Counted from the stretch's first letter, positions 4,803-63,805 are shown. The stretch is DNA of 64,000 nt from Candidatus Thorarchaeota archaeon (GCA_046758445.1 JBHIAE010000011.1:1-64000); one strand, 5' to 3'. The notes: generated by a model from the letters alone, not told the origin. Made by a program: numbers and translations.

Positions 4803-7437
4803 GTAATAGGCTCTCTATTGCTTCTGCAAGGTGCCCTTCAAATTCGTCTGACGAGAATGAAGATATATTACGAAGATGGATATTGACCCCATCAAGTTGC
4901 TCTTGAAAGTCAATTCCTGCGGTTTCACCCAGTTGAAACAAGTCGATTCTATATCGTTCCTTCGAGGTCAAAGCCTGCAGAAATGGCCTAGCGGCATCAA
5001 TCTCTTCGCGTATATCACTTGTAAAGATCAAGACAAGTGTCGGCATCTGAGGTCCAAAGTCCTCAAGGAACTCCGCAATGGACCGGAAAGCCCCTGACAC
5101 ACTCGATCTCCCACCAACCTCGCCTATGGTGTCAAGCACATAGTACATAATCGAAACCAGGACCTCTTCTGAAGTAAGCTCGCTGGAGAATCGGACACTG
5201 GTCCTAACAGCATCTCCTTTCTGAATTGAGAACTTCACGGGGGATTCAGAGTAGGTCACTATACCTAGTTCTCCGTCACTTCTGTTGGTGGCGAGATTCT
5301 GAACAGAGTGCAAGGCGGCCAATGCGGCTATCTCGATTCTCGATGACTTCCGATCAAGCCTTGCAAGGTATTCCGACAGTTCGGGCGCATCTCTGACGAA
5401 AGGCTGAAGCTTCCTTCTAGTCGACAGAAGAGTCTTCAGCTGCATGTCTCGGATACCCATGGACGCTCCTGTAGAGATGCACAATACGACATTGATCGGT
5501 CTGAACACCTGTGAGGGTTTGAACTCGATAGCTTGAGTAGGTAGTTTGGCCAGCTCTTCAGATTCTAGCGACGGTACTGAATAAGCAAGGGTCATGCTAC
5601 TCCTAGAGTTCCTTCCTCCAAACCAGAGTCTAGTACCTCTCCCTATCAATCGTCCATCTAACATTGTTCTAATCTCATCACTGTGAAGATACACATAGGC
5701 GATGAGCTCATTCATGGAGGTACCACTTTCTGAATCGAGGGCGAAGACCGCTCTCTCGACATCAGTAGTGGTGCCGTCATGCTTGACAAGATCCACAATG
5801 GATGACTCGCAAAGTCCCAATAGCAGGGCATCCTCTTCTGCTATGCCTATTGTTCTGACAGGACAGTTCTCGTCAAGAGCCGCCTTTCCAGCCCACCATT
5901 GTCCAGTGCCAGCTTCCAGAGCCAATATTGACTCATTCTCAATGACCTCAACGGCCCTCATATCAGCTTCAGACATAGCGATAATGCCACTCTCTTGTGA
6001 TACGATTTTCACCCCGAAATGTAGTGCAGATAGCAGTTCTTGCGGGTTTCGGACTTTCAAGCAATCGAGCAAAGCGTAGTTGAATCGGTTCAGGTGCGAG
6101 GGTGAATCAAGAATTGGGCCTTCAGCCCTTGTCGCAGCCCTCACGAGAGTGCTGAACAAATCGGCTCTTCTCTTAGAGATGTTGTCGGTGAAGGACTGTC
6201 TCCATCCCGAAACCCTCAACGAGCCATCTCTCTCCTTCTGTAGTGCAAGCGCGTTTGCAGAGGGGTCACGAGGATCTCTGACAGTCATGACCACATTGTC
6301 GAAGTGGACGACTCCGCCCTCCCGAGACAGCATATAGTCAAATGACTCGATGATTTGCAGTCTACGAGCCGCCAGGATCCGAAGTATCCTTGCGAACTCG
6401 TTCAGAGAAGCCCTGCCTAGAAGTCCCTCAGCAACAACTGTAGAGTTGTTCATGATGAATGGCAGATAGGGTGGCCTTGAAGGAAGTAGTGAGAGAATAT
6501 TACCTCCAAGTATGCGTTGAATATCATCAGCTTCTGCCCCGGCACCCTTACTTAGAAGGAAGCTAAGCACTTCCGATAGGCTGTCTCCGACCTGAGTTTC
6601 TGGGTAAGCGCTGGCGAAGATGAGTCTTGATGACCAAGGGGCATCCTTTGTGACTTTGCGGAGGTATCGGGTTATCAACGCTAGAGAGGATATGGTCGCT
6701 CCAGCAGTGAGAATCCTAGACCCGGGGATGTCTAGGGGCCGTGCGATGAGGTTTCCCCACTCTCTGTGATCCCTGACAGAGAAGATCAGTGTGGGGGTTT
6801 CCAGTCCCGCCTCTTTCATGAACACCAACCATTCTAACAGAGCATCCAATTCGCTTCTAGCATTCAACTCAATGAACACAGGTAGATTGGACTTGAAGTA
6901 CCAAAGGAGGTCGGCTCGATTTGAACCCGTGAGATAGGTTTCTATCTCCGACGCCGCAAGATTGCATGCCCAGCCTGCGTTTGCTCGATGACCATGTCGC
7001 ATCTCCTGCGTTTGATAGAGCCTAGAGCTGAATGGTGGATTTGCGGCCCACTCCTCAATGAGTTTGATGTTTTCTGTCTGCTGAGCAGCAGGGAGCGACG
7101 TGCTTGCTACACTAAGTAGAGGCCTCACCATGAAGGCGTCAACGAACCATTCAGTATCCAAGCTCGCATGCAAGTCTTGGTAGAGTTTGCTCATCATCGG
7201 AGGCTTCTTGAGGTACTCGTAGGCCCGACGGGGTATGAAGCCAAAGGCTTCTGGATACTTAGTGGAGTAGTCATGCAAACGGTCCTCGACCATGCCGTAG
7301 TATTCAACGGCTCTCTGTGGGTCGAACAACATAGTTTGTGAGCCTACCTGAACAGCCCCAAGCTGTAGCATGGCGTCAAGTATGAAGAAGCGCCGAATCT
7401 CGTTTGTCGTAGCGTCTTCGACAACAAGCATAGTCAT
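4786..7437 (-). CDS. Fusion protein: inactive amidohydrolase-like domain + CDC48 N-domain-like + degenerate vWA
   Basis: N-half aligns by eye to 7580-9079 (ILDAMLQLG vs IVDAHHHMG; LIFASAYP vs VLFGTDYS; QRILGGN shared). Middle is CDC48_N/CDC48_2-like (GIIAMSEADM, LDGRLIGRG). C-terminal vWA (VVLCISTGASM, LIFTSD). Confidence 0.75.
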   Translation of the reverse strand: MTMLVVEDATTNEIRRFFILDAMLQLGAVQVGSQTMLFDPQRAVEYYGMVEDRLHDYSTKYPEAFGFIPRRAYEYLKKPPMMSKLYQDLHASLDTEWFVDAFMVRPLLSVASTSLPAAQQTENIKLIEEWAANPPFSSRLYQTQEMRHGHRANAGWACNLAASEIETYLTGSNRADLLWYFKSNLPVFIELNARSELDALLEWLVFMKEAGLETPTLIFSVRDHREWGNLIARPLDIPGSRILTAGATISSLALITRYLRKVTKDAPWSSRLIFASAYPETQVGDSLSEVLSFLLSKGAGAEADDIQRILGGNILSLLPSRPPYLPFIMNNSTVVAEGLLGRASLNEFARILRILAARRLQIIESFDYMLSREGGVVHFDNVVMTVRDPRDPSANALALQKERDGSLRVSGWRQSFTDNISKRRADLFSTLVRAATRAEGPILDSPSHLNRFNYALLDCLKVRNPQELLSALHFGVKIVSQESGIIAMSEADMRAVEVIENESILALEAGTGQWWAGKAALDENCPVRTIGIAEEDALLLGLCESSIVDLVKHDGTTTDVERAVFALDSESGTSMNELIAYVYLHSDEIRTMLDGRLIGRGTRLWFGGRNSRSSMTLAYSVPSLESEELAKLPTQAIEFKPSQVFRPINVVLCISTGASMGIRDMQLKTLLSTRRKLQPFVRDAPELSEYLARLDRKSSRIEIAALAALHSVQNLATNRSDGELGIVTYSESPVKFSIQKGDAVRTSVRFSSELTSEEVLVSIMYYVLDTIGEVGGRSSVSGAFRSIAEFLEDFGPQMPTLVLIFTSDIREEIDAARPFLQALTSKERYRIDLFQLGETAGIDFQEQLDGVNIHLRNISSFSSDEFEGHLAEAIESLLPTQHD

Positions 7438-7579
7438 GTGCTTCCTGGCTCATCCTATTATCTGGTTCCGCACGAGATGTTATATGCATGATGTGGATTT
7501 CCTCTTGTTGGTGGGGTGGACTGGGGAATAGTTTATACCACGCTGGCGCCCATTCTCTGCACCCCGGAGCATAGCCTAG

Positions 7580-9079
7580 ATGTTAGTAGTACGTGCGGTC
7601 GAAGACATACCGAAGAGGGGAATCAAGAAGAACGACAAGTTCCAGCTATACATCGTTGATGCTCATCATCACATGGGACGGGAGAAGAGTCACACAAACA
7701 GTCCTTCAGGTGCCTATGACTTCTACGCGCTTCTTTGGTTTGAGCTACAGCGGATGGCGAAAGAACAGATGGAGAAAGACCTCCTCCTCTTCGAACCTCT
7801 GGAAGTAGTTCCGCCTCAGCTTCCGGCAAAGATGTTTTCAAGCAAAGAGAACTGGGCACGCATGAATCATGGTTGGCTGGTTGACAGAACGATAGCGTTC
7901 CCATTCTCAGATGACTACTCGAAGAGCGATTCACCTGATGTTCCGTCTTTTCGTGTTTCCAATGACAAGATCGCTGGATGGACAACGCGTGCCCCACATT
8001 CTTCGCGTCTAATCGGGTTTGCCAGAGTAGATCCCAAAGATGCGCTGAATGGTGCTCCCAATAGACCCGTGAAGGAAATTGAAAGAGCCGTGAAGGTACT
8101 AGGTCTTAGAGGTCTCAAATTGCACCCCTTGGCTCAGCTGTTTGTAGACGACATTGAAGCTGACTATATGAAAGACATCATGAAGAGAGCAGGCGAGTTA
8201 GGCATTCCTGTGATTATGGACACGAGAAATACTCGAACAGTTCTAAGGATTAGAGAACTAATAGAATCCATGAGAGGAGTCAAGAAGTACAGGAGCTCTT
8301 TGAGTGGGCTGGCTGTCATTCTAGCCCACTGTGGGATGAGTCCTGGAAACGCACGTCTTTATGAAGTCCTAAGAGATCCAGTGTTCTTTGGTGAGACCTC
8401 AACTCTCCACGGAAAGGACATACCGATTCTTTTTAACATGGCCAGTGAACGCATCGAGGCCCCTGGCGTTCGCTGGTCTGAGAAGGTCCTTTTCGGAACC
8501 GATTATAGCTTCCTTTCTGTTCAAGCTGCAGAGCTGATTCTGTATCTGATTTCAAGAAGCTTTGAGGGCAGTCTCACCGATGCACAGAGGATTCTTGGAG
8601 GCAATGCTCTGCTTCTTGCCCAGAGGCCCTTCAAGAGTGGGAATGGGGTAAAACGCAAACCTAAGGGCGTCATCTGTGAAGCATGCAAGCCAGAAGCGAT
8701 GAATGACCTTGAGAATACCATTCTTTCACTTCTTGGCAGGGATTGGGACGTTTCGTCTTTGGACTTCTTAATACCACCTCGCCACACCTGGCCCCGCATA
8801 CGATCTATCGAAGAAGGAGGTTACAACGGAGTTCATTTCAACTCCTATGTGTTGACTCTTCGTCGCAGTGGCAAAGAAACACATGTCTGGATAAGAGAGA
8901 TTCCCGGGGGTTTGATGAGCTGCAGTATTCTAGGGACTAAGGGAAGGTCCACTTTGGACACTGCCGAGTTCGCGTTTCAAAAGATAAGCCCGGAGTTGCG
9001 TGACATTCTGAGGAAGAATACAGTGACTGCAAGAACAACAAACGAGCTAATAGAGGGTGTCCTGCAAATCCTCACTTGA
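7580..9079 (+). CDS. Amidohydrolase family 2 (TIM-barrel metal-dependent hydrolase) with C-terminal extra domain
   Basis: VDAHHHMG, LIGFARVDP, GLRGLKLHP, ILAHCG, VLFGTDY, ILGGNA motifs. TTTATA box at ~7532. Confidence 0.9.
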   Translation: MLVVRAVEDIPKRGIKKNDKFQLYIVDAHHHMGREKSHTNSPSGAYDFYALLWFELQRMAKEQMEKDLLLFEPLEVVPPQLPAKMFSSKENWARMNHGWLVDRTIAFPFSDDYSKSDSPDVPSFRVSNDKIAGWTTRAPHSSRLIGFARVDPKDALNGAPNRPVKEIERAVKVLGLRGLKLHPLAQLFVDDIEADYMKDIMKRAGELGIPVIMDTRNTRTVLRIRELIESMRGVKKYRSSLSGLAVILAHCGMSPGNARLYEVLRDPVFFGETSTLHGKDIPILFNMASERIEAPGVRWSEKVLFGTDYSFLSVQAAELILYLISRSFEGSLTDAQRILGGNALLLAQRPFKSGNGVKRKPKGVICEACKPEAMNDLENTILSLLGRDWDVSSLDFLIPPRHTWPRIRSIEEGGYNGVHFNSYVLTLRRSGKETHVWIREIPGGLMSCSILGTKGRSTLDTAEFAFQKISPELRDILRKNTVTARTTNELIEGVLQILT

Positions 9080-9144
9080 CCCGCACAATTCTTTATAATG
9101 AATCTGGCCGACATTGAAACATCGTACATGCGGAGGTAACAGCC

Positions 9145-10437
9145 ATCACCAAGTCGGTGACACTAGGAATTGAAGACGGCGGAGATCTCAGGGGATATGC
9201 CGTCGTAAATCCGAAGACAGCGAAGATTCTGAACGCAGAACTTGGGTCTATTGTCGTATTCGAAGATCCGCAGTCATCTTTCTGGGGAGCCGCACAGGTT
9301 CGCATCAACAAGGAGGTTCCGCCTGACAAGATATCTGTGGACACACTTGTTCTGGAAGCATCGCTGTTGATGGACGGAGATACAGGAATTGATGTAACTC
9401 TGTACGATGAAGACATGACAGCTCTTGAGTATGTTGAGTTCGGTCTCAAGCCCCTTTCCGAGGATGCGAACACTGATGATTTGGTGACTCGAGCAGCCGA
9501 ACAGGTGAAATCTCTGGAGAAGCTAATTGGAGGACGGCTTGTATATCCTGGTATGTCATTTAACTGGCCCGAACTTGCCGCAAAGGTCGAGATAATGACC
9601 ACTCGACCGTCACTCTCTGGAAAGATGTTTGCCAAGCTTGCATTTGAAGCATTGAGAGAGAAGACAGGCTACCAGTTCAAGACAATTGGCATAGCGACTC
9701 CTTTCAACGCTGTTCTCTGTGTTGATACGAGTGGTTCCATGAAGACGACAGATGTTCCTGTGCAAGACATCGCTCATGCTAGAGAAGGGCTCAAAGACCT
9801 GGCGGGTGACAATCCTGAGGTGCAGGCCTTCCTCGACAGGTTCAAGGAAGGAAAGAACGTAAGTCGGGCTGAAGCCGCCGCGATGGCTGTACTACTATAC
9901 TTAGCTGAGAAAGTCGGAAGAGGTTATGGGGAGAAAGTTGGAGTGATCACCTTCGAGAAGGAGGTGACGGAAATGACTTTCCTCAACTCTGAAACAGGCG
10001 AGGTCCAGCCTTTCGTTGAGTGTACTGGAAGGGAGAAAGCACTAGGCCTGCAGATCATCAGTACGCACGTGGTCGACAAGGTTGAGGAAGGCGGGACTCT
10101 AACTGACATGGGAACCGCATTGACAAAAGCGCACGAGATCATAGAGGCATTTGGGGACCCAGGCAAACCTACAATGCTCATAATGCTGACAGACGGCATG
10201 ACAACATCAGGTCCTCCTCCATTGAAGATTCTAAAAGAACGCTTCACCGATGGAGGAAGGCTTGTCATCTACAGCATAGGACTTGGAGAGCGCAGCGAAA
10301 TTGATGAAGAATTGATGCTTGCTATGGCACAGTATGGCAATGGCACCTATCGGCATGTAGACAATATGCGTGATCTGTTAGAATGGTACGGTAAGCTGGC
10401 AAGTGAGTTCGCCATTGTTATTCGAGGCGCTAGCTGA
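9145..10437 (+). CDS. CDC48/VAT N-domain-like + vWA protein (intact MIDAS)
   Basis: RGYAVVNPKTAKILNAELGSIVVF...DKISVD (double-psi barrel) and LIGGRLVYPG..VEIMTTRP (CDC48_2). vWA motifs VLCVDTSGSM, GTLTDMGTAL, IMLTDG. SD GGAGGT at 9132 points to ATC 9145; GTG 9157 is the alternative. Confidence 0.85.
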   Translation: MTKSVTLGIEDGGDLRGYAVVNPKTAKILNAELGSIVVFEDPQSSFWGAAQVRINKEVPPDKISVDTLVLEASLLMDGDTGIDVTLYDEDMTALEYVEFGLKPLSEDANTDDLVTRAAEQVKSLEKLIGGRLVYPGMSFNWPELAAKVEIMTTRPSLSGKMFAKLAFEALREKTGYQFKTIGIATPFNAVLCVDTSGSMKTTDVPVQDIAHAREGLKDLAGDNPEVQAFLDRFKEGKNVSRAEAAAMAVLLYLAEKVGRGYGEKVGVITFEKEVTEMTFLNSETGEVQPFVECTGREKALGLQIISTHVVDKVEEGGTLTDMGTALTKAHEIIEAFGDPGKPTMLIMLTDGMTTSGPPPLKILKERFTDGGRLVIYSIGLGERSEIDEELMLAMAQYGNGTYRHVDNMRDLLEWYGKLASEFAIVIRGAS

Positions 10438-29328: not shown

Positions 29329-30516
29329 CTAATCCGTGGCCTCAGCTTTTGAGTTGTAGTAATATCTTGCTCCTGATCCGGTATTGAGAATGACAACCTC
29401 CTCATCATAGTCAATCTGGCCCATCTCGACAAGATTCCTGAGACCTGCCAATCCAACAGCTGTTTCAGGACAAACATTGATGCCCTCCATGCGAGCAACC
29501 ATCCTTCTACAGGGCTCAATCTCCTGTTCGGCAACTGCCACGGCACTCCCACCTGACCTTCTAATGGTGGCGACTATCAGTCTCCCTGCAAAGGGACTAT
29601 TCACCCTCAGTCCAAGAGCGCTCGTGTCCCCCCCTGGCCATGGTTCCACATCGTCATTCTCGTGCTCAATCGCTCTTACGATAGGAGCACACCCAGCACT
29701 CTGTGCTGCATACATTCTGGGTCTTCGTGTATCAATGAGACCGAGTGCCTCCAGTTCATCAAGCCCCTTCCAGATTCCGATTAGCGCGGTACCTCCTCCA
29801 GTTGGGCATACGATTGCGTCTGGAACCCGCCACCCAAGTTGTTCTGCAATCTCAAAGGCTAGAGTCTTCTTGCCCTCTACTCGATAAGGTTCCTTTGTTG
29901 TCGAGAGGTCAATCCACTCTCCACCTTTCTTGTTCATCTCCTTTGCGGAGTCAGAGATGCCACCCGGCACTCGGGTAGTTTCTGCACCATATGCAGAACA
30001 GTCCTGAAAGAACGGTTCAGGAGTGTCCGCAGGCATATAGATATGACACTCTGCCCCAGCAGCCGAAGAGTAAGCACTTGCAGACACTGCTGCGTTGCCT
30101 GCAGAAGGCATTGCAAACGAACGAGCACCGAGCTCCGCATGCTTTGATATGGCAACACAGAGTCCCCGGTCCTTGAACGAGGCAGTAGGGTTTTGCGCCT
30201 CATCCTTGATGCTCAAGAGCCTTAGTCCCAAATGCTTGTCCAGTCTTCTGGCACTCACAAGGGGTGTCCAACCTTCCCCAAGACTGTATATGAAAGAAGG
30301 TGACTTTACAGGCAATAGCTGAGAATACCTCCACATCGAGTTGATCTTTGAAGGGAATTGGCCTGTGTGGATGTCCTCTATTACACTGATCAGGTCATAG
30401 ACTCCGAAAAGGGGCGAGCCACAAACACAGTAGGTCTGGGGAACATCAGCTGAGTAGTCTCTGCCGCACTGCGGACATTCGAGATGCAGAAGATGCGATA
30501 TCATTGACTGCCCCAC
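29329..30516 (-). CDS. thrC: Threonine synthase (PLP fold II)
   Basis: SLGEGWTPL, NPTASFKDRG, SAGNA, PYRVEGKKT, PTGGG, NTGSG. Confidence 0.88.
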   Translation of the reverse strand: MGQSMISHLLHLECPQCGRDYSADVPQTYCVCGSPLFGVYDLISVIEDIHTGQFPSKINSMWRYSQLLPVKSPSFIYSLGEGWTPLVSARRLDKHLGLRLLSIKDEAQNPTASFKDRGLCVAISKHAELGARSFAMPSAGNAAVSASAYSSAAGAECHIYMPADTPEPFFQDCSAYGAETTRVPGGISDSAKEMNKKGGEWIDLSTTKEPYRVEGKKTLAFEIAEQLGWRVPDAIVCPTGGGTALIGIWKGLDELEALGLIDTRRPRMYAAQSAGCAPIVRAIEHENDDVEPWPGGDTSALGLRVNSPFAGRLIVATIRRSGGSAVAVAEQEIEPCRRMVARMEGINVCPETAVGLAGLRNLVEMGQIDYDEEVVILNTGSGARYYYNSKAEATD

Positions 30517-58528: not shown

Positions 58529-58737
58529 TATTTACGGAGCTCAAGTCAGAGCTTATCTTTGTGCTGCTTAATCTCCGACTCGTTTACACTTGGTGCGGTA
58601 GTATCGCTGGTTGGCACTTCTTGTGCTCGCCGACTTGGAGATAGTCCACTACATGCCGAAACCCTCACAATAATATATCGGACGCACAATATATGACTCA
58701 GTGCTCAAGCTGAAGATTGTCTGCTGGAGGAGTAGAT

Positions 58738-60456
58738 GTGGCAGTCGCGTTCATGGCCGCATTGGAGAAGTCTCCCGAAACCTACGACCATGAATTCGAT
58801 GCCGTTCTTGAAGGGCGTGCCAGTCAGATAAGGGAAAGAATCCTAGATCTTGTCAAACCAGGGATGAATGTGCTGGACCTGGGTTGTGGCACGGGCCTTC
58901 TGGCAACGGAGGCTGCAAAGAGAGAGGCAAGGGTGGTTGGTATTGATTCGAATCTGGAGATGATAGGGCTTGCCATAATACGGGCAGCAGGTTTGGACAA
59001 CGCCCCAGAGTTCTTGCATGGAGATGTTCTATCGTTTGGAGAGGAAGTTGGCACTGGAAGGCCTGAGAATGAATCTGGCCGATTCGACCTCATTGTGACC
59101 ACATTTCTGCTTTCGGAGCTCAAACCACCCCAGCGCGATCTCCTCATGCAGGTCGTCGGATCATTGCTGCGTGTTGACGGGATATTTGCAGTTGCAGCGG
59201 AAACTCTACCGAGTTCCTTCTCAGAAAGAAGGAGATTCTGGAGAAACAGAAGCCAAGCAGAAAGGCAATCGCGAAGGAGATTGCCCCGGCCTATCACCAA
59301 TTTGGACGAAATCGTAGAAGAAGCAGGGCTTGTCATTCTTGAAACTGAGAAGTATGGGTCAGAGATTACGTTCATTCAGGGTGAGGTCGGAAAGAGCCCC
59401 CCTTCCCTCACATATCGGACCAGAGCCAAAGCGTTCGAAGGTGTCAAGGCTAGACTAAGAACTTGGTACAATCATCTAACCGGCGGATGGCGTGGGATTC
59501 CAATCAAGCCTGGCCTGTATAAGTCGGGAGATCCGAAGCGCAACAGTCCTATCGTAGTGACAGCCAATTACGAACTGACCTATTATACAGTCATGCGCGC
59601 TCTGGCGAAAGAGAGAATCGATGCCTGGGTCCTTGTATGCGACACTGACGGTATTAACGTATGGTGCGCGGCGAGGGGGACGCACTTCGACAGTGAAGAT
59701 GTTATCCAGATGATGCGCCTGACTAGTTTGGGCGAACTAGTGGATCATAGAGAAATCATAATGCCACAGCTCTCAGCTGCCGGAATGGATCCTACGTTGA
59801 TTCGAGAGCGAACAGGGTTCAGAGTCCGTTATGGACCAGTCCGGATACAAGACCTCTCAGAGTGGCTTGCACTTGGAAAGCCCCGACCGAAGCCGAGGAA
59901 GATGGCAAGTGTGACCTTCAATCTGAGAGAGAGAATGGAACAGAGTGCAGCACACATTCCCTTCCTGTTCGCAGCTCTGCTTGGCAAACCGATCGCGGCC
60001 ATCTTGGGGATTCTTGCGGTTGTTAACATCTTGCTCTTTGTAGCTGTCCCACCAGCAATGACCTTATCGTACCCACTTACGCTTCAGATTCTTCTATTGA
60101 TAGCGGAGTTCATCGCAGCATTGGTGGGCAACGCATTCACCCTTGGTCTCTTGTTCCCCATTCTTCCTTCAAAGGGGAATTCCTTCTGGCGACGAGGGCT
60201 CGGACTTGCAGGAATCACTTTGCCGCTTGCCGCTGTCATCATGATAATGTTTGGGGTACATTGGACGTTGTTTGTTGTATGGATGGTTGTTCAATTGGTG
60301 ATGGCCACGTCCCTGACAATGGACTGGTCTGGAATGACATCAGTAAGTGATCCAAAGGTGATAAGAAGAGAGTATCCCTATATGATTCAGACTCTGAAAG
60401 TCGGTGTTGTCTTCATAGTAGTCTTTAACTTGGTAGTAGCTCTCTTGGGTTGGTGA
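58738..60456 (+). CDS. Class I SAM methyltransferase fused to HgcA-like corrinoid protein (CdhD-like domain + TM domain)
   Basis: VLDLGCGTG (SAM motif I). PGLYKSGDP..SPIVVTANY, DTDGINVWCAA, IMPQLSAAG, YGPVR, then ~4-5 TM helices. GTG 58738 follows GGAGGA. Confidence 0.88.
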   Translation: MAVAFMAALEKSPETYDHEFDAVLEGRASQIRERILDLVKPGMNVLDLGCGTGLLATEAAKREARVVGIDSNLEMIGLAIIRAAGLDNAPEFLHGDVLSFGEEVGTGRPENESGRFDLIVTTFLLSELKPPQRDLLMQVVGSLLRVDGIFAVAAETLPSSFSERRRFWRNRSQAERQSRRRLPRPITNLDEIVEEAGLVILETEKYGSEITFIQGEVGKSPPSLTYRTRAKAFEGVKARLRTWYNHLTGGWRGIPIKPGLYKSGDPKRNSPIVVTANYELTYYTVMRALAKERIDAWVLVCDTDGINVWCAARGTHFDSEDVIQMMRLTSLGELVDHREIIMPQLSAAGMDPTLIRERTGFRVRYGPVRIQDLSEWLALGKPRPKPRKMASVTFNLRERMEQSAAHIPFLFAALLGKPIAAILGILAVVNILLFVAVPPAMTLSYPLTLQILLLIAEFIAALVGNAFTLGLLFPILPSKGNSFWRRGLGLAGITLPLAAVIMIMFGVHWTLFVVWMVVQLVMATSLTMDWSGMTSVSDPKVIRREYPYMIQTLKVGVVFIVVFNLVVALLGW

Positions 60457-60462
60457 CAGAGA

Positions 60463-60789
60463 ATGACGATTGTTTTGGAAGATGTGGGCCTAGAGATTGA
60501 ATACAACCGCCAAAAGTGTAATCGCTGTGGCATATGCTTGGAGGTCTGCCCTTTTGGGGTCTGGGAGATGCCAGAAGAGGGGCCGGCAGTACTTGCAAGG
60601 ATTGAAAACTGCACAAATTGTACAGCCTGCGCCAAGAACTGTCTGGGCGGTGCAATAGCCGTCAGGAACATAGGTTGTGGATGTATTTGGAATGAAGCGG
60701 CACGGCGGCGTGGTGATTGTGAGGAGTCTGTTGTCAGAACCAGCAATTTAGAAACCGGTTCGCACGCCAGCAAATGTTGTTCAGACTGA
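60463..60789 (+). CDS. HgcB-like 2[4Fe-4S] ferredoxin with Cys-rich tail
   Basis: CNRCGICLEVCP, CTNCTACAKNC, IGCGC, terminal KCCSD; immediately downstream of the hgcA-like gene. Confidence 0.85.
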   Translation: MTIVLEDVGLEIEYNRQKCNRCGICLEVCPFGVWEMPEEGPAVLARIENCTNCTACAKNCLGGAIAVRNIGCGCIWNEAARRRGDCEESVVRTSNLETGSHASKCCSD

Positions 60790-60916
60790 AGACTCGTCAA
60801 ACAGAGGTCCGGGGGAACCTCTAGACGCATTTCATCGATTATGAGGACGTGAGCAACCAAGTGCATCCTCTAGTTTATATGTGAGTTGCTGGTCCCGCAC
60901 AGCCGAAGGGTGATTC

Positions 60917-62320
60917 TTGATGGCGAAGAAGTTCGTTCCTACAGGGGTCATGCCAGCTCTAGTCACTCCGTTTACCAAGGATGGAGACATTCTCGAAGAG
61001 GGCTTCGGGCAGGTAATCGACTACACAATCGGCAAGGGTGCCACGGGAATAGTCCCGGCTGGCACAACCGGAGAATTCTCGTATCTGCGCACCGAGGAAC
61101 GCAAGAAACTCCTCAAGCTGGCGGTCGAGTTTGTTGACGGTAGGGTGCCCATTGTGGCTGGCACGGGTCAACATAGCACGAGGGCAACTGTAGAACTTAC
61201 GAAGTACGCGGCTGACATAGGATGTGACGCTGCTCTTATCATCTCACCATTCTATCTGAGGCCAACAGACAAGGGATACTACGAACATTTCTCCACTGTC
61301 GCTAGAAAGGGGGGCCTACCCGTCATCCCTTACAATATCCCCCAATGCACTCTAGGTGTACTCAACTCCAACGTTTTGGAGGATCTCGCAGAACTCGATA
61401 GCATAGTGGGAATAAAGGACAGCAGTGGAAACATAGGCCACACCGTAGAACTAATCCAGAAGCTGAAGGGGAAGATGCCAGTTCTGATAGGGCACGATGA
61501 GTGCTTTCTCTCAGCAATTGCCGCCGGAGCAAGTGCTGCAATTCTCGCATCCGCCAATGTTATTCCCCACATCTGGCTAGACATCATGGAGAAGGTCAAG
61601 ACCGGGGATTTTGAGGGCGCTAGTGAACTTCAGCATAGTGCGCAGACACTTGCCAGGATTGTTACAAGAAATGGAGGAGCTCCGCCGGTCAAGGCAGCTC
61701 TGAAGATGATGGGAATTAAGGCAGGTAGGAGTAGGATGCCTCTGAATACTGGGGGAACGTTGACACTTGAAACAAGAGAGGAGATTCGTATTGAGCTCGA
61801 GAAACTTGGCGCAATTGAGAGTCTGAGTCATCCTCCGCTTGACGCGAACATCGATATTGGAAGTGTTCTGCATGATATGGGCGTAGATCTGGGTAGCAAA
61901 TCTGGCCTTGCATTTGGACGCGGATCAAATGACTCAGTTTCTGTAAGCATTGCTGCAGGTCCGAAGGGCGGTTCCCTGGGACCTGCATTTGTAAAGCTCC
62001 TGACGACTCCGAAGATTGGCCATGAGGCGTTGACAGTGATTCTGGAACCGAATCTCCAAGTCTTACCTTCAAGCATCATGTTGCCGACAAAACAGATTCA
62101 GTCAATGCGGCAGGCATCTTTGTTCTATGGGCCTGTCCAATCTGGAGCTGCGCGGGCGGTAGCACTTCATGTCGAGGCTGGTAAGATTCCAAAGCAGTTC
62201 TTGCGTGACCAAGTAATCATTATGGCAATTGACATGGATATGAACACAAGAGAACGTAGAGTGGTACGAGCAGCCACCGAGGACGCAGTATCTGTAGCCC
62301 TTGGGCAGATATGGAGCTGA
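60917..62320 (+). CDS. DapA/NAL-family class I aldolase fused to a degenerate Fae domain
   Basis: ALVTPF, GTTGE, YNIP, GIKDSSG. C-terminal GPKGGSLGPAF..GHEALTVILEPNL..YGPVQSGAARAV is Fae-like. Confidence 0.85.
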   Translation: MMAKKFVPTGVMPALVTPFTKDGDILEEGFGQVIDYTIGKGATGIVPAGTTGEFSYLRTEERKKLLKLAVEFVDGRVPIVAGTGQHSTRATVELTKYAADIGCDAALIISPFYLRPTDKGYYEHFSTVARKGGLPVIPYNIPQCTLGVLNSNVLEDLAELDSIVGIKDSSGNIGHTVELIQKLKGKMPVLIGHDECFLSAIAAGASAAILASANVIPHIWLDIMEKVKTGDFEGASELQHSAQTLARIVTRNGGAPPVKAALKMMGIKAGRSRMPLNTGGTLTLETREEIRIELEKLGAIESLSHPPLDANIDIGSVLHDMGVDLGSKSGLAFGRGSNDSVSVSIAAGPKGGSLGPAFVKLLTTPKIGHEALTVILEPNLQVLPSSIMLPTKQIQSMRQASLFYGPVQSGAARAVALHVEAGKIPKQFLRDQVIIMAIDMDMNTRERRVVRAATEDAVSVALGQIWS

Positions 62321-62326
62321 TAAGAC

Positions 62327-63805
62327 ATGACTAGTGAGGAATATCGGTTCAAAGGGGTTTATCCTGCACTTGTCACTCCCCTTGATGACAGCGGCGTGAA
62401 CGAGGAGCAATACAGGAATCTGATAGAATACACACTCAGCAAGGGTGCAACAGGCCTTGTTCCATGCGGGACAACTGGTGAGTTTACTAGCATGAGGTTC
62501 GATGAGAAAGTTGAGGCTATTAGAATCGCATGCGAAGCAGCGCAGGGTCGTGTTCCTGTCCTCGCAGGAACTGGCGCTGCATACACGAATGATGTCATCA
62601 AGCTCACACGTCGGGCGGCTGAGTTCGGAGCAGCAGCAGCTTTAGTTGTTTCCCCATACTTCCTCAAACCCTCAACCAAGGAAGTATACGAGCATTTTGA
62701 GAAGATAGCAAACACAAGTGAGATTCCCATCATCATATACAATATTCCGCAGGTGACAGGAGTCAATCTTGACTGGTGGCTGATCGATGGTCTTCGGGAG
62801 ATAGACAATATCATCGGACTCAAGGACTCAAGTGGCAATCTTGTAAATCTAACAACGGTACTGGTGAGGAGACCCGACGACTTTCAGGTGATGGTTGGTC
62901 ATGATGAAGTTGCGCTTCCAGCTCTAGCATCTGGATGTGATGGAGCCGTTCTTGCGAGCGCGAACGTGTTTCCTGACAGATACCTCCGCCTCCAGGGTGC
63001 GCTTGCCGTAGGAAACCTGAAGGATGCTCTCATCATTCAGAGGAGCATACAGAAGACGGTGCGAATCATTGTCAATAGAGGAGGAGGAATGGCTGTGAAG
63101 GCCGCTTTGAACATGATGGGAGTCCATGTCGGTAAAGCCCGACCTCCGTTGCATGAAGGAGATCTCCTTCGCTACGAGGACATTGATGAGCTCCGTACCT
63201 GTCTAGAAGACTTGCAGCTGATCGAGAGGGGTCCTGTTACTTTCAAAATGGGCGAGGAGTCCATAGTGGCCGAGAGCTACCCAAAGGCCAAGGGGCTTGT
63301 CCCGGATGAGATTCCTGATATCACTCTGCTTCATGGTGAAGCACTTGCTGGTGAGGGACAGGAAGTCGCCCACGTAGATTTGGTGATGGGAGTCCGAAAC
63401 GGACCAATGAAGGAAGTTTTCGAGCACGCTGGGAAACTTATCGAGGGATTCCACTCCTCCACTGTCATAAAGGACATTGAGCCCACAACGGTGTTTGCGC
63501 CCACTGTTACTATCACAAGCGAGAAGCAGAAGAGAATGGTCTTTGAAGTTGCGCAAAAAGCTGTGGCAGATGCTGTCGTTCGAACAGTCACAGACGGCAT
63601 TATTCCAGAGGAGTTGGTGCCCGATCTCGTCATCGCTGCAAACGTGTTCGTACATCCAACGGCAGTCAACTCCAGACGTGTACATATCAACAACTTTAGA
63701 GCTGTCAGGTTTGCAATTAGGCGGGCTATTGAGAACAGGCAGTCTGCCGATGAGATCATAGCCAGAATAGAGTCCGCGAGGCATCCCTTTGCATACAACC
63801 CATAG
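62327..63805 (+). CDS. DapA/NAL-family class I aldolase fused to Fae (formaldehyde-activating enzyme) domain
   Basis: GTTGE, YNIP, GLKDSSG. C-terminal GEALAGEGQEVAHVDLVMG, AQKAVADAV..DGIIP, NVFVHP, RHPF. Confidence 0.9.
   Translation: MTSEEYRFKGVYPALVTPLDDSGVNEEQYRNLIEYTLSKGATGLVPCGTTGEFTSMRFDEKVEAIRIACEAAQGRVPVLAGTGAAYTNDVIKLTRRAAEFGAAAALVVSPYFLKPSTKEVYEHFEKIANTSEIPIIIYNIPQVTGVNLDWWLIDGLREIDNIIGLKDSSGNLVNLTTVLVRRPDDFQVMVGHDEVALPALASGCDGAVLASANVFPDRYLRLQGALAVGNLKDALIIQRSIQKTVRIIVNRGGGMAVKAALNMMGVHVGKARPPLHEGDLLRYEDIDELRTCLEDLQLIERGPVTFKMGEESIVAESYPKAKGLVPDEIPDITLLHGEALAGEGQEVAHVDLVMGVRNGPMKEVFEHAGKLIEGFHSSTVIKDIEPTTVFAPTVTITSEKQKRMVFEVAQKAVADAVVRTVTDGIIPEELVPDLVIAANVFVHPTAVNSRRVHINNFRAVRFAIRRAIENRQSADEIIARIESARHPFAYNP

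Follow-up and report, generated by a model that had tools for sequence, protein, structure and literature searches.

Do two tandem genes of a Thorarchaeota contig, the orthologs of which are all named DapA in public databases, act in lysine biosynthesis, or do they encode an enzyme of one-carbon (C1) metabolism? The window, by which we mean the whole stretch of 64,000 nucleotides analysed here (Candidatus Thorarchaeota archaeon, GCA_046758445.1 JBHIAE010000011.1:1-64000), belongs to contig C11 of a Thorarchaeota assembly of 3.25 Mb that is 92.7% complete. Two open reading frames (ORFs) on the same strand, hereafter referred to as gene A and gene B, fill positions 60917-63805. Each encodes an N-terminal aldolase domain of the dihydrodipicolinate synthase (DHDPS)/NAL superfamily and a C-terminal formaldehyde-activating enzyme (Fae) domain, and the two proteins are 36% identical to each other across both domains. 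They belong to a real, widespread and misannotated family of aldolase-Fae fusions with two subunits, the active site of which is apparently split between the paralogs. From the sequences, a joint model of both Fae domains and analogy with known enzymes, we propose that genes A and B may be the two subunits of a single conserved hetero-oligomeric, bifunctional aldolase/Fae enzyme passing formaldehyde between methylene-tetrahydromethanopterin (methylene-H4MPT) and a pyruvate enamine, a proposal to which we give an even chance of being correct. No paper on a DHDPS/DapA-Fae fusion was found in the literature, and one Asgard paper naming Thorarchaeota and Fae covers only Fae-Hps.

The aldolase domains and the DapA annotation

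The DHDPS profile (PF00701) matched both proteins, with 246.3 bits for gene A (E 3.6e-73, profile positions 3-282 of 289) and 237.7 bits for gene B (E 1.5e-70, positions 2-273 of 289). Alignment to E. coli DapA showed that GTTGE (T44/T45), Y133 and K161 are retained in both proteins; with the whole TIM barrel matched and the Schiff-base Lys, Tyr133 and GxTGE present, both are members of the DHDPS/NAL superfamily. The position of R138, a residue reportedly essential in DapA, is occupied by Cys in gene A (YNIPQCT) and by Val in gene B (YNIPQVT). The first-pass annotation, made from the sequence alone, had described both genes as intact Schiff-base aldolases lacking the substrate arginine of DHDPS, and the alignment confirmed this description.

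Conservation was counted in Thorarchaeota orthologs, 121 of type A and 109 of type B, and in 247 fusion sequences in all. Lys, Tyr133 and T44/T45 were kept in 121/121 A-type sequences and in 103-109 of the 109 B-type sequences (Lys in 105, Tyr133 in 109). Arg was present at the R138 position in none of the 247 fusion sequences, and this position was itself conserved, as Cys in 118/121 A-type sequences and as Val (101) or Leu (7) in the 109 B-type sequences. The residue corresponding to Y107, which in DHDPS extends into the active site of the adjoining subunit, was Tyr in 111/121 A-type and Phe in 108/109 B-type orthologs.

Both proteins narrowly passed the dapA equivalog of NCBIfam, TIGR00674, with 217.7 (A) and 224.4 (B) bits against a cut-off of 206.15, which accounts for their public naming as “4-hydroxy-tetrahydrodipicolinate synthase”; the nearest solved structures by sequence are likewise DHDPS enzymes. 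In the maximum likelihood tree, however, the aldolase domains of the fusions formed a clade of their own (support 86/95), distinct from that of E. coli-type DapA (97/89). Profile searches of the genome found no DapF (PF01678), no Asd/ArgC-type dehydrogenase (PF02774), no homoserine dehydrogenase (Hom) and no DapB (PF01113), the best match to the last having only 31 bits, within a 359-aa ORF. As the assembly is 92.7% complete, the absence of these diaminopimelate (DAP) genes is probable rather than proven. DapB_C (PF05173) was found in none of 31 Thorarchaeota genomes, 17 of which are of high quality; the fusion was found in 56/59. The profiling for lysine DAP genes suggested in the first-pass annotation gave no DapB, DapF or Asd, and genes A and B are very unlikely to be DapA.

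The two stand-alone DHDPS-family genes of the genome, on contigs C2 and C76, likewise lack Arg138. The first (C2:88114-89025; L004:1492-2403) encodes 303 aa with the motif YNIPLFT, lies directly 3' of an aldehyde:ferredoxin-oxidoreductase-like ORF and is possibly a 2-keto-3-deoxy-acid aldolase working in tandem with the oxidation of an aldehyde.

Complementary loss of Fae elements in the two proteins

The genome has no Fae domains other than those of genes A and B. PF08714 matched gene A with 86.9 bits (E 1.9e-24) and gene B with 118.1 bits (E 4.7e-34); for TIGR03126 (cut-off 118), gene B scored above the cut-off, with 128.5 bits, and gene A below it, with 80.5 bits. In alignments with the Fae of Methylorubrum extorquens (PDB 1Y5Y), gene B was aligned with residues 8-168 and keeps GEAL..EVAHVDL, NVFVHP and the C-terminal ARHPF, whereas gene A was aligned with residues 14-122 only, has Ser in place of both His and Asp, and stops some 25 residues short of the Fae C-terminus. 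Conversely, GHEALTVILEPNL and YGPVQ are retained by gene A and have been lost from gene B. Neither chain contains a complete Fae, with His22, Asp and the rest of the pocket, but A and B jointly hold all the elements. Fae is reported by Acharya et al. 2005 to be a homopentamer, with methylene-H4MPT in a cleft between two subunits; His22 is said to be the acid catalyst, Gln88 to flip upon binding and the C-terminal arm to become ordered.

The equivalent of the catalytic His22 was present in 0/121 A-type and 108/109 B-type orthologs. That of Gln88 was present in all 121 A-type sequences from Thorarchaeota and in 6/7 others; among B-types, it was found in 97/109 Thorarchaeota sequences and was lost elsewhere. 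The EPNL loop is at least 90% conserved in A-type orthologs. In all lineages, A-types keep this loop and GPxQ and lack His, Asp and the arm, whereas in B-types GEAL, the His and Asp, FVHP and the C-terminal arm are present, the xPNL loop is 4-6 residues shorter and the GP of GPAQ has been lost. Stand-alone Fae proteins (P0475-P0479) and the fusion of Lokiarchaeota have the full motif set. The complementary decay noticed in the first-pass annotation was thus borne out: every motif it named is present and, across lineages and the 121 A-type and 109 B-type orthologs, the pattern is not a matter of chance. The single DHDPS-Fae gene of Lokiarchaeota (L012:8001-9491), with His, Asp and C-terminal arm, EPNM loop and GPAQ in its Fae domain and Cys at the R138 position, is a candidate for the homomeric form of the enzyme; Lokiarchaeal genomes also possess Fae-Hps.

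The Fae domains of A and B were modelled together in three runs, with family alignments as input. The ipSAE of the A/B model was 0.81, versus 0.01 for the best control, that mark having been reached by 58/80 solved complexes and 2/110 mismatched pairs. The runs shared at least 84% of contacts, and the partner pLDDT was 82. The predicted interface comprises, on the A side, GPKGG, residues 355-367, the EPNL loop (370-387) and residues 409-433 and, on the B side, residues 333-340 (GEAL), H349, D351, residues 437/439 and the C-terminal arm (462-484). The model supports binding between A and B, with the retained motifs at a common interface. Two faces were defined from the interface columns of this model, and their identity to stand-alone Fae was compared. 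For A, identity was 0.37 on its own face and 0.13 on the other, which has lost 39% of its columns through deletion; for B, the corresponding values were 0.50 and 0.18, with 16% of columns deleted. The Lokiarchaeal fusion had values of 0.34 and 0.53 on the two faces, with nothing deleted, and other lineages share the A/B asymmetry.

Distribution and genomic context of the gene pair

Each paralog has hundreds of orthologs. When sequences were clustered at 50% identity, an exhaustive profile search gave about 15 clusters of fusions, with source labels that include Thorarchaeota, Lokiarchaeota/Promethearchaeota, Korarchaeota/Thermoproteota, Chloroflexota/Anaerolineae and, for partial genes, Bathyarchaeia. 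Among 251 sampled Asgard genomes, grouped in families (f numbers), full-length fusions were present in f1, f8, f9, f12, f13, f16, f18, f21, f24 and f27, and no fusion was found in f5, f14, f17, f20 and f22. Mch, a marker of H4MPT-dependent C1 metabolism, was present in every fusion-bearing family and was not found in f5, f14, f17, f20, f22 and f26; no Mch-free family had the fusion. Mch and Mer are also present in the genome studied here, in answer to the call of the first-pass annotation for H4MPT-dependent C1 genes. Full-length canonical Fae-Hps occurs in most Mch-positive families, the fusion-bearing ones included; it was found in 0/59 Thorarchaeota genomes, and a profile search of the genome studied here found no Hps. 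The fusion is thus tied to H4MPT users, and is neither simply a generic Fae nor a substitute for Fae-Hps. Replacement of Fae-Hps by the fusion was rejected, because most fusion-bearing Asgard families also hold full-length Fae-Hps.

Mtd (PF01993), the F420-dependent methylene-H4MPT dehydrogenase, was not found in the assembly; it is present in 2/3 genomes sampled from the same genus and in 19/30 Thorarchaeota genomes, and its absence may reflect assembly incompleteness or patchy loss. Complete stand-alone Fae genes nearest the B-type domain were found at L030:1196-3308 and L032:3690-5504; they adjoin a gene for an amine-oxidase-like flavoprotein in one case and SHMT in the other, neighbours that fit the handling of C1 units.

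Gene A lies upstream of gene B in four contexts (Table 1), with unrelated flanking genes in each. Lokiarchaeal genomes have one fusion gene, and the 427-aa ORF 5' of it is unrelated to gene A. In the window, gene A ends with a TGA at 62318-62320, 6 nt from the start of gene B, and has 120 orthologs with identities of 66-92%. The first-pass annotation had started gene A at TTG 60917 (467 aa); the remainder of its span stands, but the true start is most likely ATG 60920, because the orthologs (P0123) have 466 aa.

In another Asgard family, the A-type copy of a tandem pair (G053:C135:11100-12584) has an in-frame TAA, which could indicate a pseudogene, a sequencing error or recoding. Directly 5' of the pair in the window (58717-60789) lie genes for a methyltransferase (MTase)-HgcA-like fusion and an HgcB-like ferredoxin, which are absent from the otherwise syntenic locus of L011, where a giant helical pair, CutA1 and the DHDPS-Fae pair are found. 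These genes look like a lineage-specific insertion outside the operon of the pair, and were rejected as a functional clue because they are not conserved beside it.

Table 1. Features of the A-B gene pair and of its transcription and translation signals (window positions), and other loci with the pair in A-B order
Feature	Position or locus	Strand	Description and basis
Candidate archaeal TATA box TTTATA	60874..60879	+	~41 nt 5' of gene A start; consensus match only
Shine-Dalgarno-like GGGTGA	60908..60913	+	7 nt 5' of ATG 60920; read from sequence
Gene A (type A subunit)	60920..62320	+	466 aa from ATG; DHDPS-family aldolase + degenerate Fae domain; ORF, Pfam
Gene A aldolase domain	60941..61789	+	Pfam; alignment to E. 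coli DapA
Gene A Tyr113 (= E. coli Y107)	61253-61255	+	Alignment to E. coli DapA
Gene A Tyr139 (= Y133)	61331-61333	+	Alignment to E. coli DapA
Gene A Cys144 (= R138 position)	61346-61348	+	Alignment to E. coli DapA
Gene A Lys167 (= K161, Schiff base)	61415-61417	+	Alignment to E. coli DapA
Gene A Fae domain	61928..62302	+	Lacks His22, Asp24 and C-terminal arm; retains GPKGG, GHEALTVILEPNL and YGPVQ
Gene A Gln408 (= Fae Gln88)	62138-62140	+	Within YGPVQ
GGAG within gene A 3' end	62313..62316	+	10 nt 5' of gene B ATG
Gene B (type B subunit)	62327..63805	+	492 aa; DHDPS-family aldolase + Fae domain with catalytic His; ORF, Pfam, orthologs
Gene B aldolase domain	62348..63157	+	Pfam; alignment to E. 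coli DapA
Gene B Phe112 (= E. coli Y107 position)	62660-62662	+	Alignment to E. coli DapA
Gene B Tyr138 (= Y133)	62738-62740	+	Alignment to E. coli DapA
Gene B Val143 (= R138 position)	62753-62755	+	Alignment to E. coli DapA
Gene B Lys166 (= K161, Schiff base)	62822-62824	+	Alignment to E. coli DapA
Gene B Fae domain	63335..63790	+	Retains GEAL, NVFVHP and C-terminal arm ..ARHPF; lacks xPNL loop (deleted) and GP of GPAQ
Gene B His349	63371-63373	+	Fae domain
Gene B Asp351	63377-63379	+	Fae domain
Gene B His486	63782-63784	+	Fae domain
A-B pair	L011		Complete Thorarchaeota genome
A-B pair	L027		297-kb contig of Anaerolineae-labelled cluster
A-B pair	L028 (GCA_003560875.1)		Genes overlap by 4 bp
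A-B pair	L029		Korarchaeota/Thermoproteota-labelled contig; genes overlap by 4 bp

Proposed reaction, alternatives and known systems

In the enzyme proposed here, each subunit consists of a class I (Schiff-base) 2-oxoacid aldolase, from a clade of the DHDPS/NAL superfamily apart from DapA, followed by Fae. The GEAL strand, H349 as the acid catalyst, D351 and the C-terminal arm would come from B, and the EPNL loop and Q408, the glutamine of GPxQ, from A; as each Fae domain keeps one side of the inter-subunit cleft, there would be one composite H4MPT/formaldehyde site per B/A interface. Formaldehyde would be made or captured at the Fae site and then joined to, or freed from, C3 of the Lys-bound pyruvate enamine. 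By analogy with Fae-Hps and PanB, the reaction would be pyruvate + methylene-H4MPT + H2O <-> 4-hydroxy-2-oxobutanoate (HOB) + H4MPT, with HOB as the likely aldol product or substrate. The first-pass annotation had suggested such a hetero-oligomer, channelling formaldehyde between a pyruvate-dependent aldol reaction and methylene-H4MPT; this suggestion is partly supported. The non-DapA identity, the H4MPT genes, the complementary decay and the modelled heteromer are in its favour, whereas the existence of the complex, the identity of the aldehyde (formaldehyde) and of the keto-acid (pyruvate or HOB), the direction of the reaction and any channelling between the two active sites are the parts that we infer.

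A more specific role, as a natural dedicated H4MPT-dependent pyruvate hydroxymethyltransferase (HOB synthase/lyase), appears decidedly doubtful. In archaea with no Asd and no Hom found, such an enzyme would supply a C4 skeleton (HOB to homoserine) with C1 units from the Wood-Ljungdahl pathway or, in reverse, drain C4 hydroxy-acids into the H4MPT pool. Few genomes have Hom in families rich in the fusion (f1, 3/59; f12, 0/19; f13, 0/3; f21, 0/3; f27, 0/5), and many have it in families without the fusion (f5, 18/26; f22, 13/16), in a comparison in which related genomes are non-independent samples; both are missing from f17 and f20. Hom and the fusion tend to avoid each other, but with exceptions. 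ThrB was not found in a profile search of the genome, which has two 497-aa threonine-synthase-like genes (NF006050, 338 and 310 bits; C68:4917-6410, minus strand, and C14:53420-54913, plus strand), both with a C-terminal PadR-like winged-helix domain and both adjoining a gene for an ECF-S/TIGR04002-like membrane protein. A weaker ThrC-like match (151 bits) lies in the window at 29374-30336 (minus strand).

Hom and the fusion occur together in 12/36 fusion-bearing Lokiarchaeal genomes and in genomes G007, G041, G058 and G025. With these exceptions to the Hom trend, no ThrB found and PadR fusions of an unusual kind as the ThrC-like genes, a homoserine bypass stays speculative. Several points weigh against the proposed enzyme. 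No conserved neighbour (aminotransferase, kinase, dehydratase) indicates a source or fate of HOB. At L028 (positions 6544-9449), both aldolase domains lack GTTGE and the Schiff-base Lys (replaced by Ala and Leu), and that of gene B also lacks Tyr133; the Fae domain of B still has its His, Asp and C-terminal arm. Aldolase catalysis is therefore not needed in every lineage with the pair, and the Fae module can outlast it. The Fae model backs binding without proving it, may mirror the likeness of the domains to the solved homopentamer 1Y5Y and cannot tell a heteromer from homomers. As the faces were taken from the same model, their analysis is partly circular, and consistent with the model rather than independent proof. 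A 1:1 A:B stoichiometry does not match the pentameric ring of canonical Fae.

The pair at L028 would fit an enzyme in which Fae is the sole real function, in formaldehyde detoxification or entry into the H4MPT pool, with the DHDPS domains as an oligomerisation scaffold or an unrelated aldolase; so would the fact that the pair holds the only Fae domains of Thorarchaeota, in which Fae-Hps was not found. We nevertheless consider this explanation unlikely, because a scaffold would not be expected to keep its Lys, Tyr and Thr in 100% of A-type and ~95-100% of B-type Thorarchaeota proteins, with a fixed residue at the R138 position. In addition, most other fusion-bearing Asgard families own a canonical Fae-Hps, which would make a second generic Fae redundant, and the two-domain fusion has been maintained across phyla. 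The probability is similarly small for an aldolase/Fae-like enzyme with other substrates, such as 2-oxobutanoate or 2-oxoisovalerate (as an H4MPT-dependent hydroxymethyltransferase), glyoxylate or acetaldehyde, or another pterin. The DHDPS superfamily spans many 4-hydroxy-2-oxoacid lyases, the HpaI-like, NanA and KDG-aldolase models of NCBIfam were matched below their cut-offs, the sequence does not fix the ligand of the acceptor pocket, and the composite Fae site departs from canonical Fae, with an identity of 0.37-0.50 even on the retained faces. However, B keeps the catalytic His and Asp of Fae and scores above the TIGR03126 equivalog cut-off, and the distribution of the fusion follows that of H4MPT genes. 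A canonical PanB (387 bits) makes a ketopantoate role unneeded, and the fusion was rejected as a PanB replacement (2-oxoisovalerate + formaldehyde) for this reason.

Two independent homo-oligomeric paralogs, forming no A-B complex and with a dead remnant as the A-type Fae, would agree with the parent families, generally known to be homomeric (DHDPS tetramer, Fae pentamer), with a complex model that is blind to this distinction and with the single gene of Lokiarchaeota. This arrangement is nonetheless quite improbable, given the constraint on the A-type Fae (Gln88 and the EPNL loop), the loss from B, partly through deletion, of exactly the elements retained by A in at least four lineages, and the conservation of A-B order and of tight or overlapping spacing amid otherwise unrelated neighbourhoods. 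A genuine DapA with an accessory Fae domain is barely tenable: the narrow TIGR00674 matches, the public names and the nearest structures speak for it, but Arg138 is missing from all 247 fusion sequences, Asd, DapB, DapF and Hom were not detected in the genome, DapB_C was found in none of the 31 Thorarchaeota genomes, and the fusions form a clade apart.

The DapA name is attached to hundreds of proteins labelled Asgard, Korarchaeota/Thermoproteota, Bathyarchaeia or Chloroflexota, so that reconstructions of metabolism may assign to these organisms a lysine step that they probably lack and overlook a C1 enzyme. As the pair contains the only Fae domains of Thorarchaeota, claims concerning formaldehyde handling or H4MPT Wood-Ljungdahl entry in this group rest on it. 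If the proposed aldolase/Fae enzyme is real, it would be the first natural enzyme to couple methylene-pterin to a class I pyruvate aldolase, with an active site divided among paralogs by complementary degeneration; half-site decay, together with the complete single-gene form of Lokiarchaeota, provides a clean, testable case of the transition from homomer to obligate heteromer. Synthetic methylotrophy seeks a dedicated pyruvate-formaldehyde aldolase, and an HOB synthase/lyase would be the natural equivalent of the step that an HOB aldolase performs in the synthetic homoserine cycle. A review (PMC8879981) refers to HOB as a “non-native metabolite” from promiscuous enzymes in this cycle, and describes neither a dedicated natural HOB enzyme nor H4MPT coupling.

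Among known systems, DapA (E. coli b2478; TIGR00674) is the best-scoring named family and shares the fold and the Schiff-base machinery (T44/T45, Y133, K161) of the fusions, which differ from it in lacking Arg138, the residue that binds the aspartate semialdehyde carboxylate, in their separate clade, in the DAP partners not found and in the extra Fae domain. The Fae of M. extorquens (1Y5Y/1Y60; PF08714, TIGR03126) is a stand-alone homopentamer of identical, complete subunits, whereas here neither chain is complete, A lacking the His, Asp and arm, and B the xPNL loop and the GP of GPAQ. RhmA of E. coli and other promiscuous HOB aldolases of the synthetic homoserine cycle, like PanB, place a formaldehyde-level C1 unit onto C3 of a 2-oxoacid, as proposed here, and PanB takes this unit from a methylene-pterin; unlike the pair, RhmA and PanB are metal-dependent and lie outside the DHDPS/NAL family. 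The closest parallel in design is Fae-Hps (NF009833) of methanogens and many Asgard archaea, in which Fae is likewise joined to an aldolase with formaldehyde as product or substrate, in H4MPT-using archaea, according to the same logic of keeping free formaldehyde out of the cytoplasm. Its partner is the metal-dependent Hps, with an OMP-decarboxylase fold, and its Fae lies at the N-terminus, whole within a single chain; the pair has a class I Schiff-base partner of the DHDPS family, a C-terminal Fae and a site split over two paralogous chains. The NF009833 match is limited to the Fae part (65 and 101 bits, versus a cut-off of 274), and the pair is thus not a member of this family but, in design, a variant of the same Fae-fusion theme.

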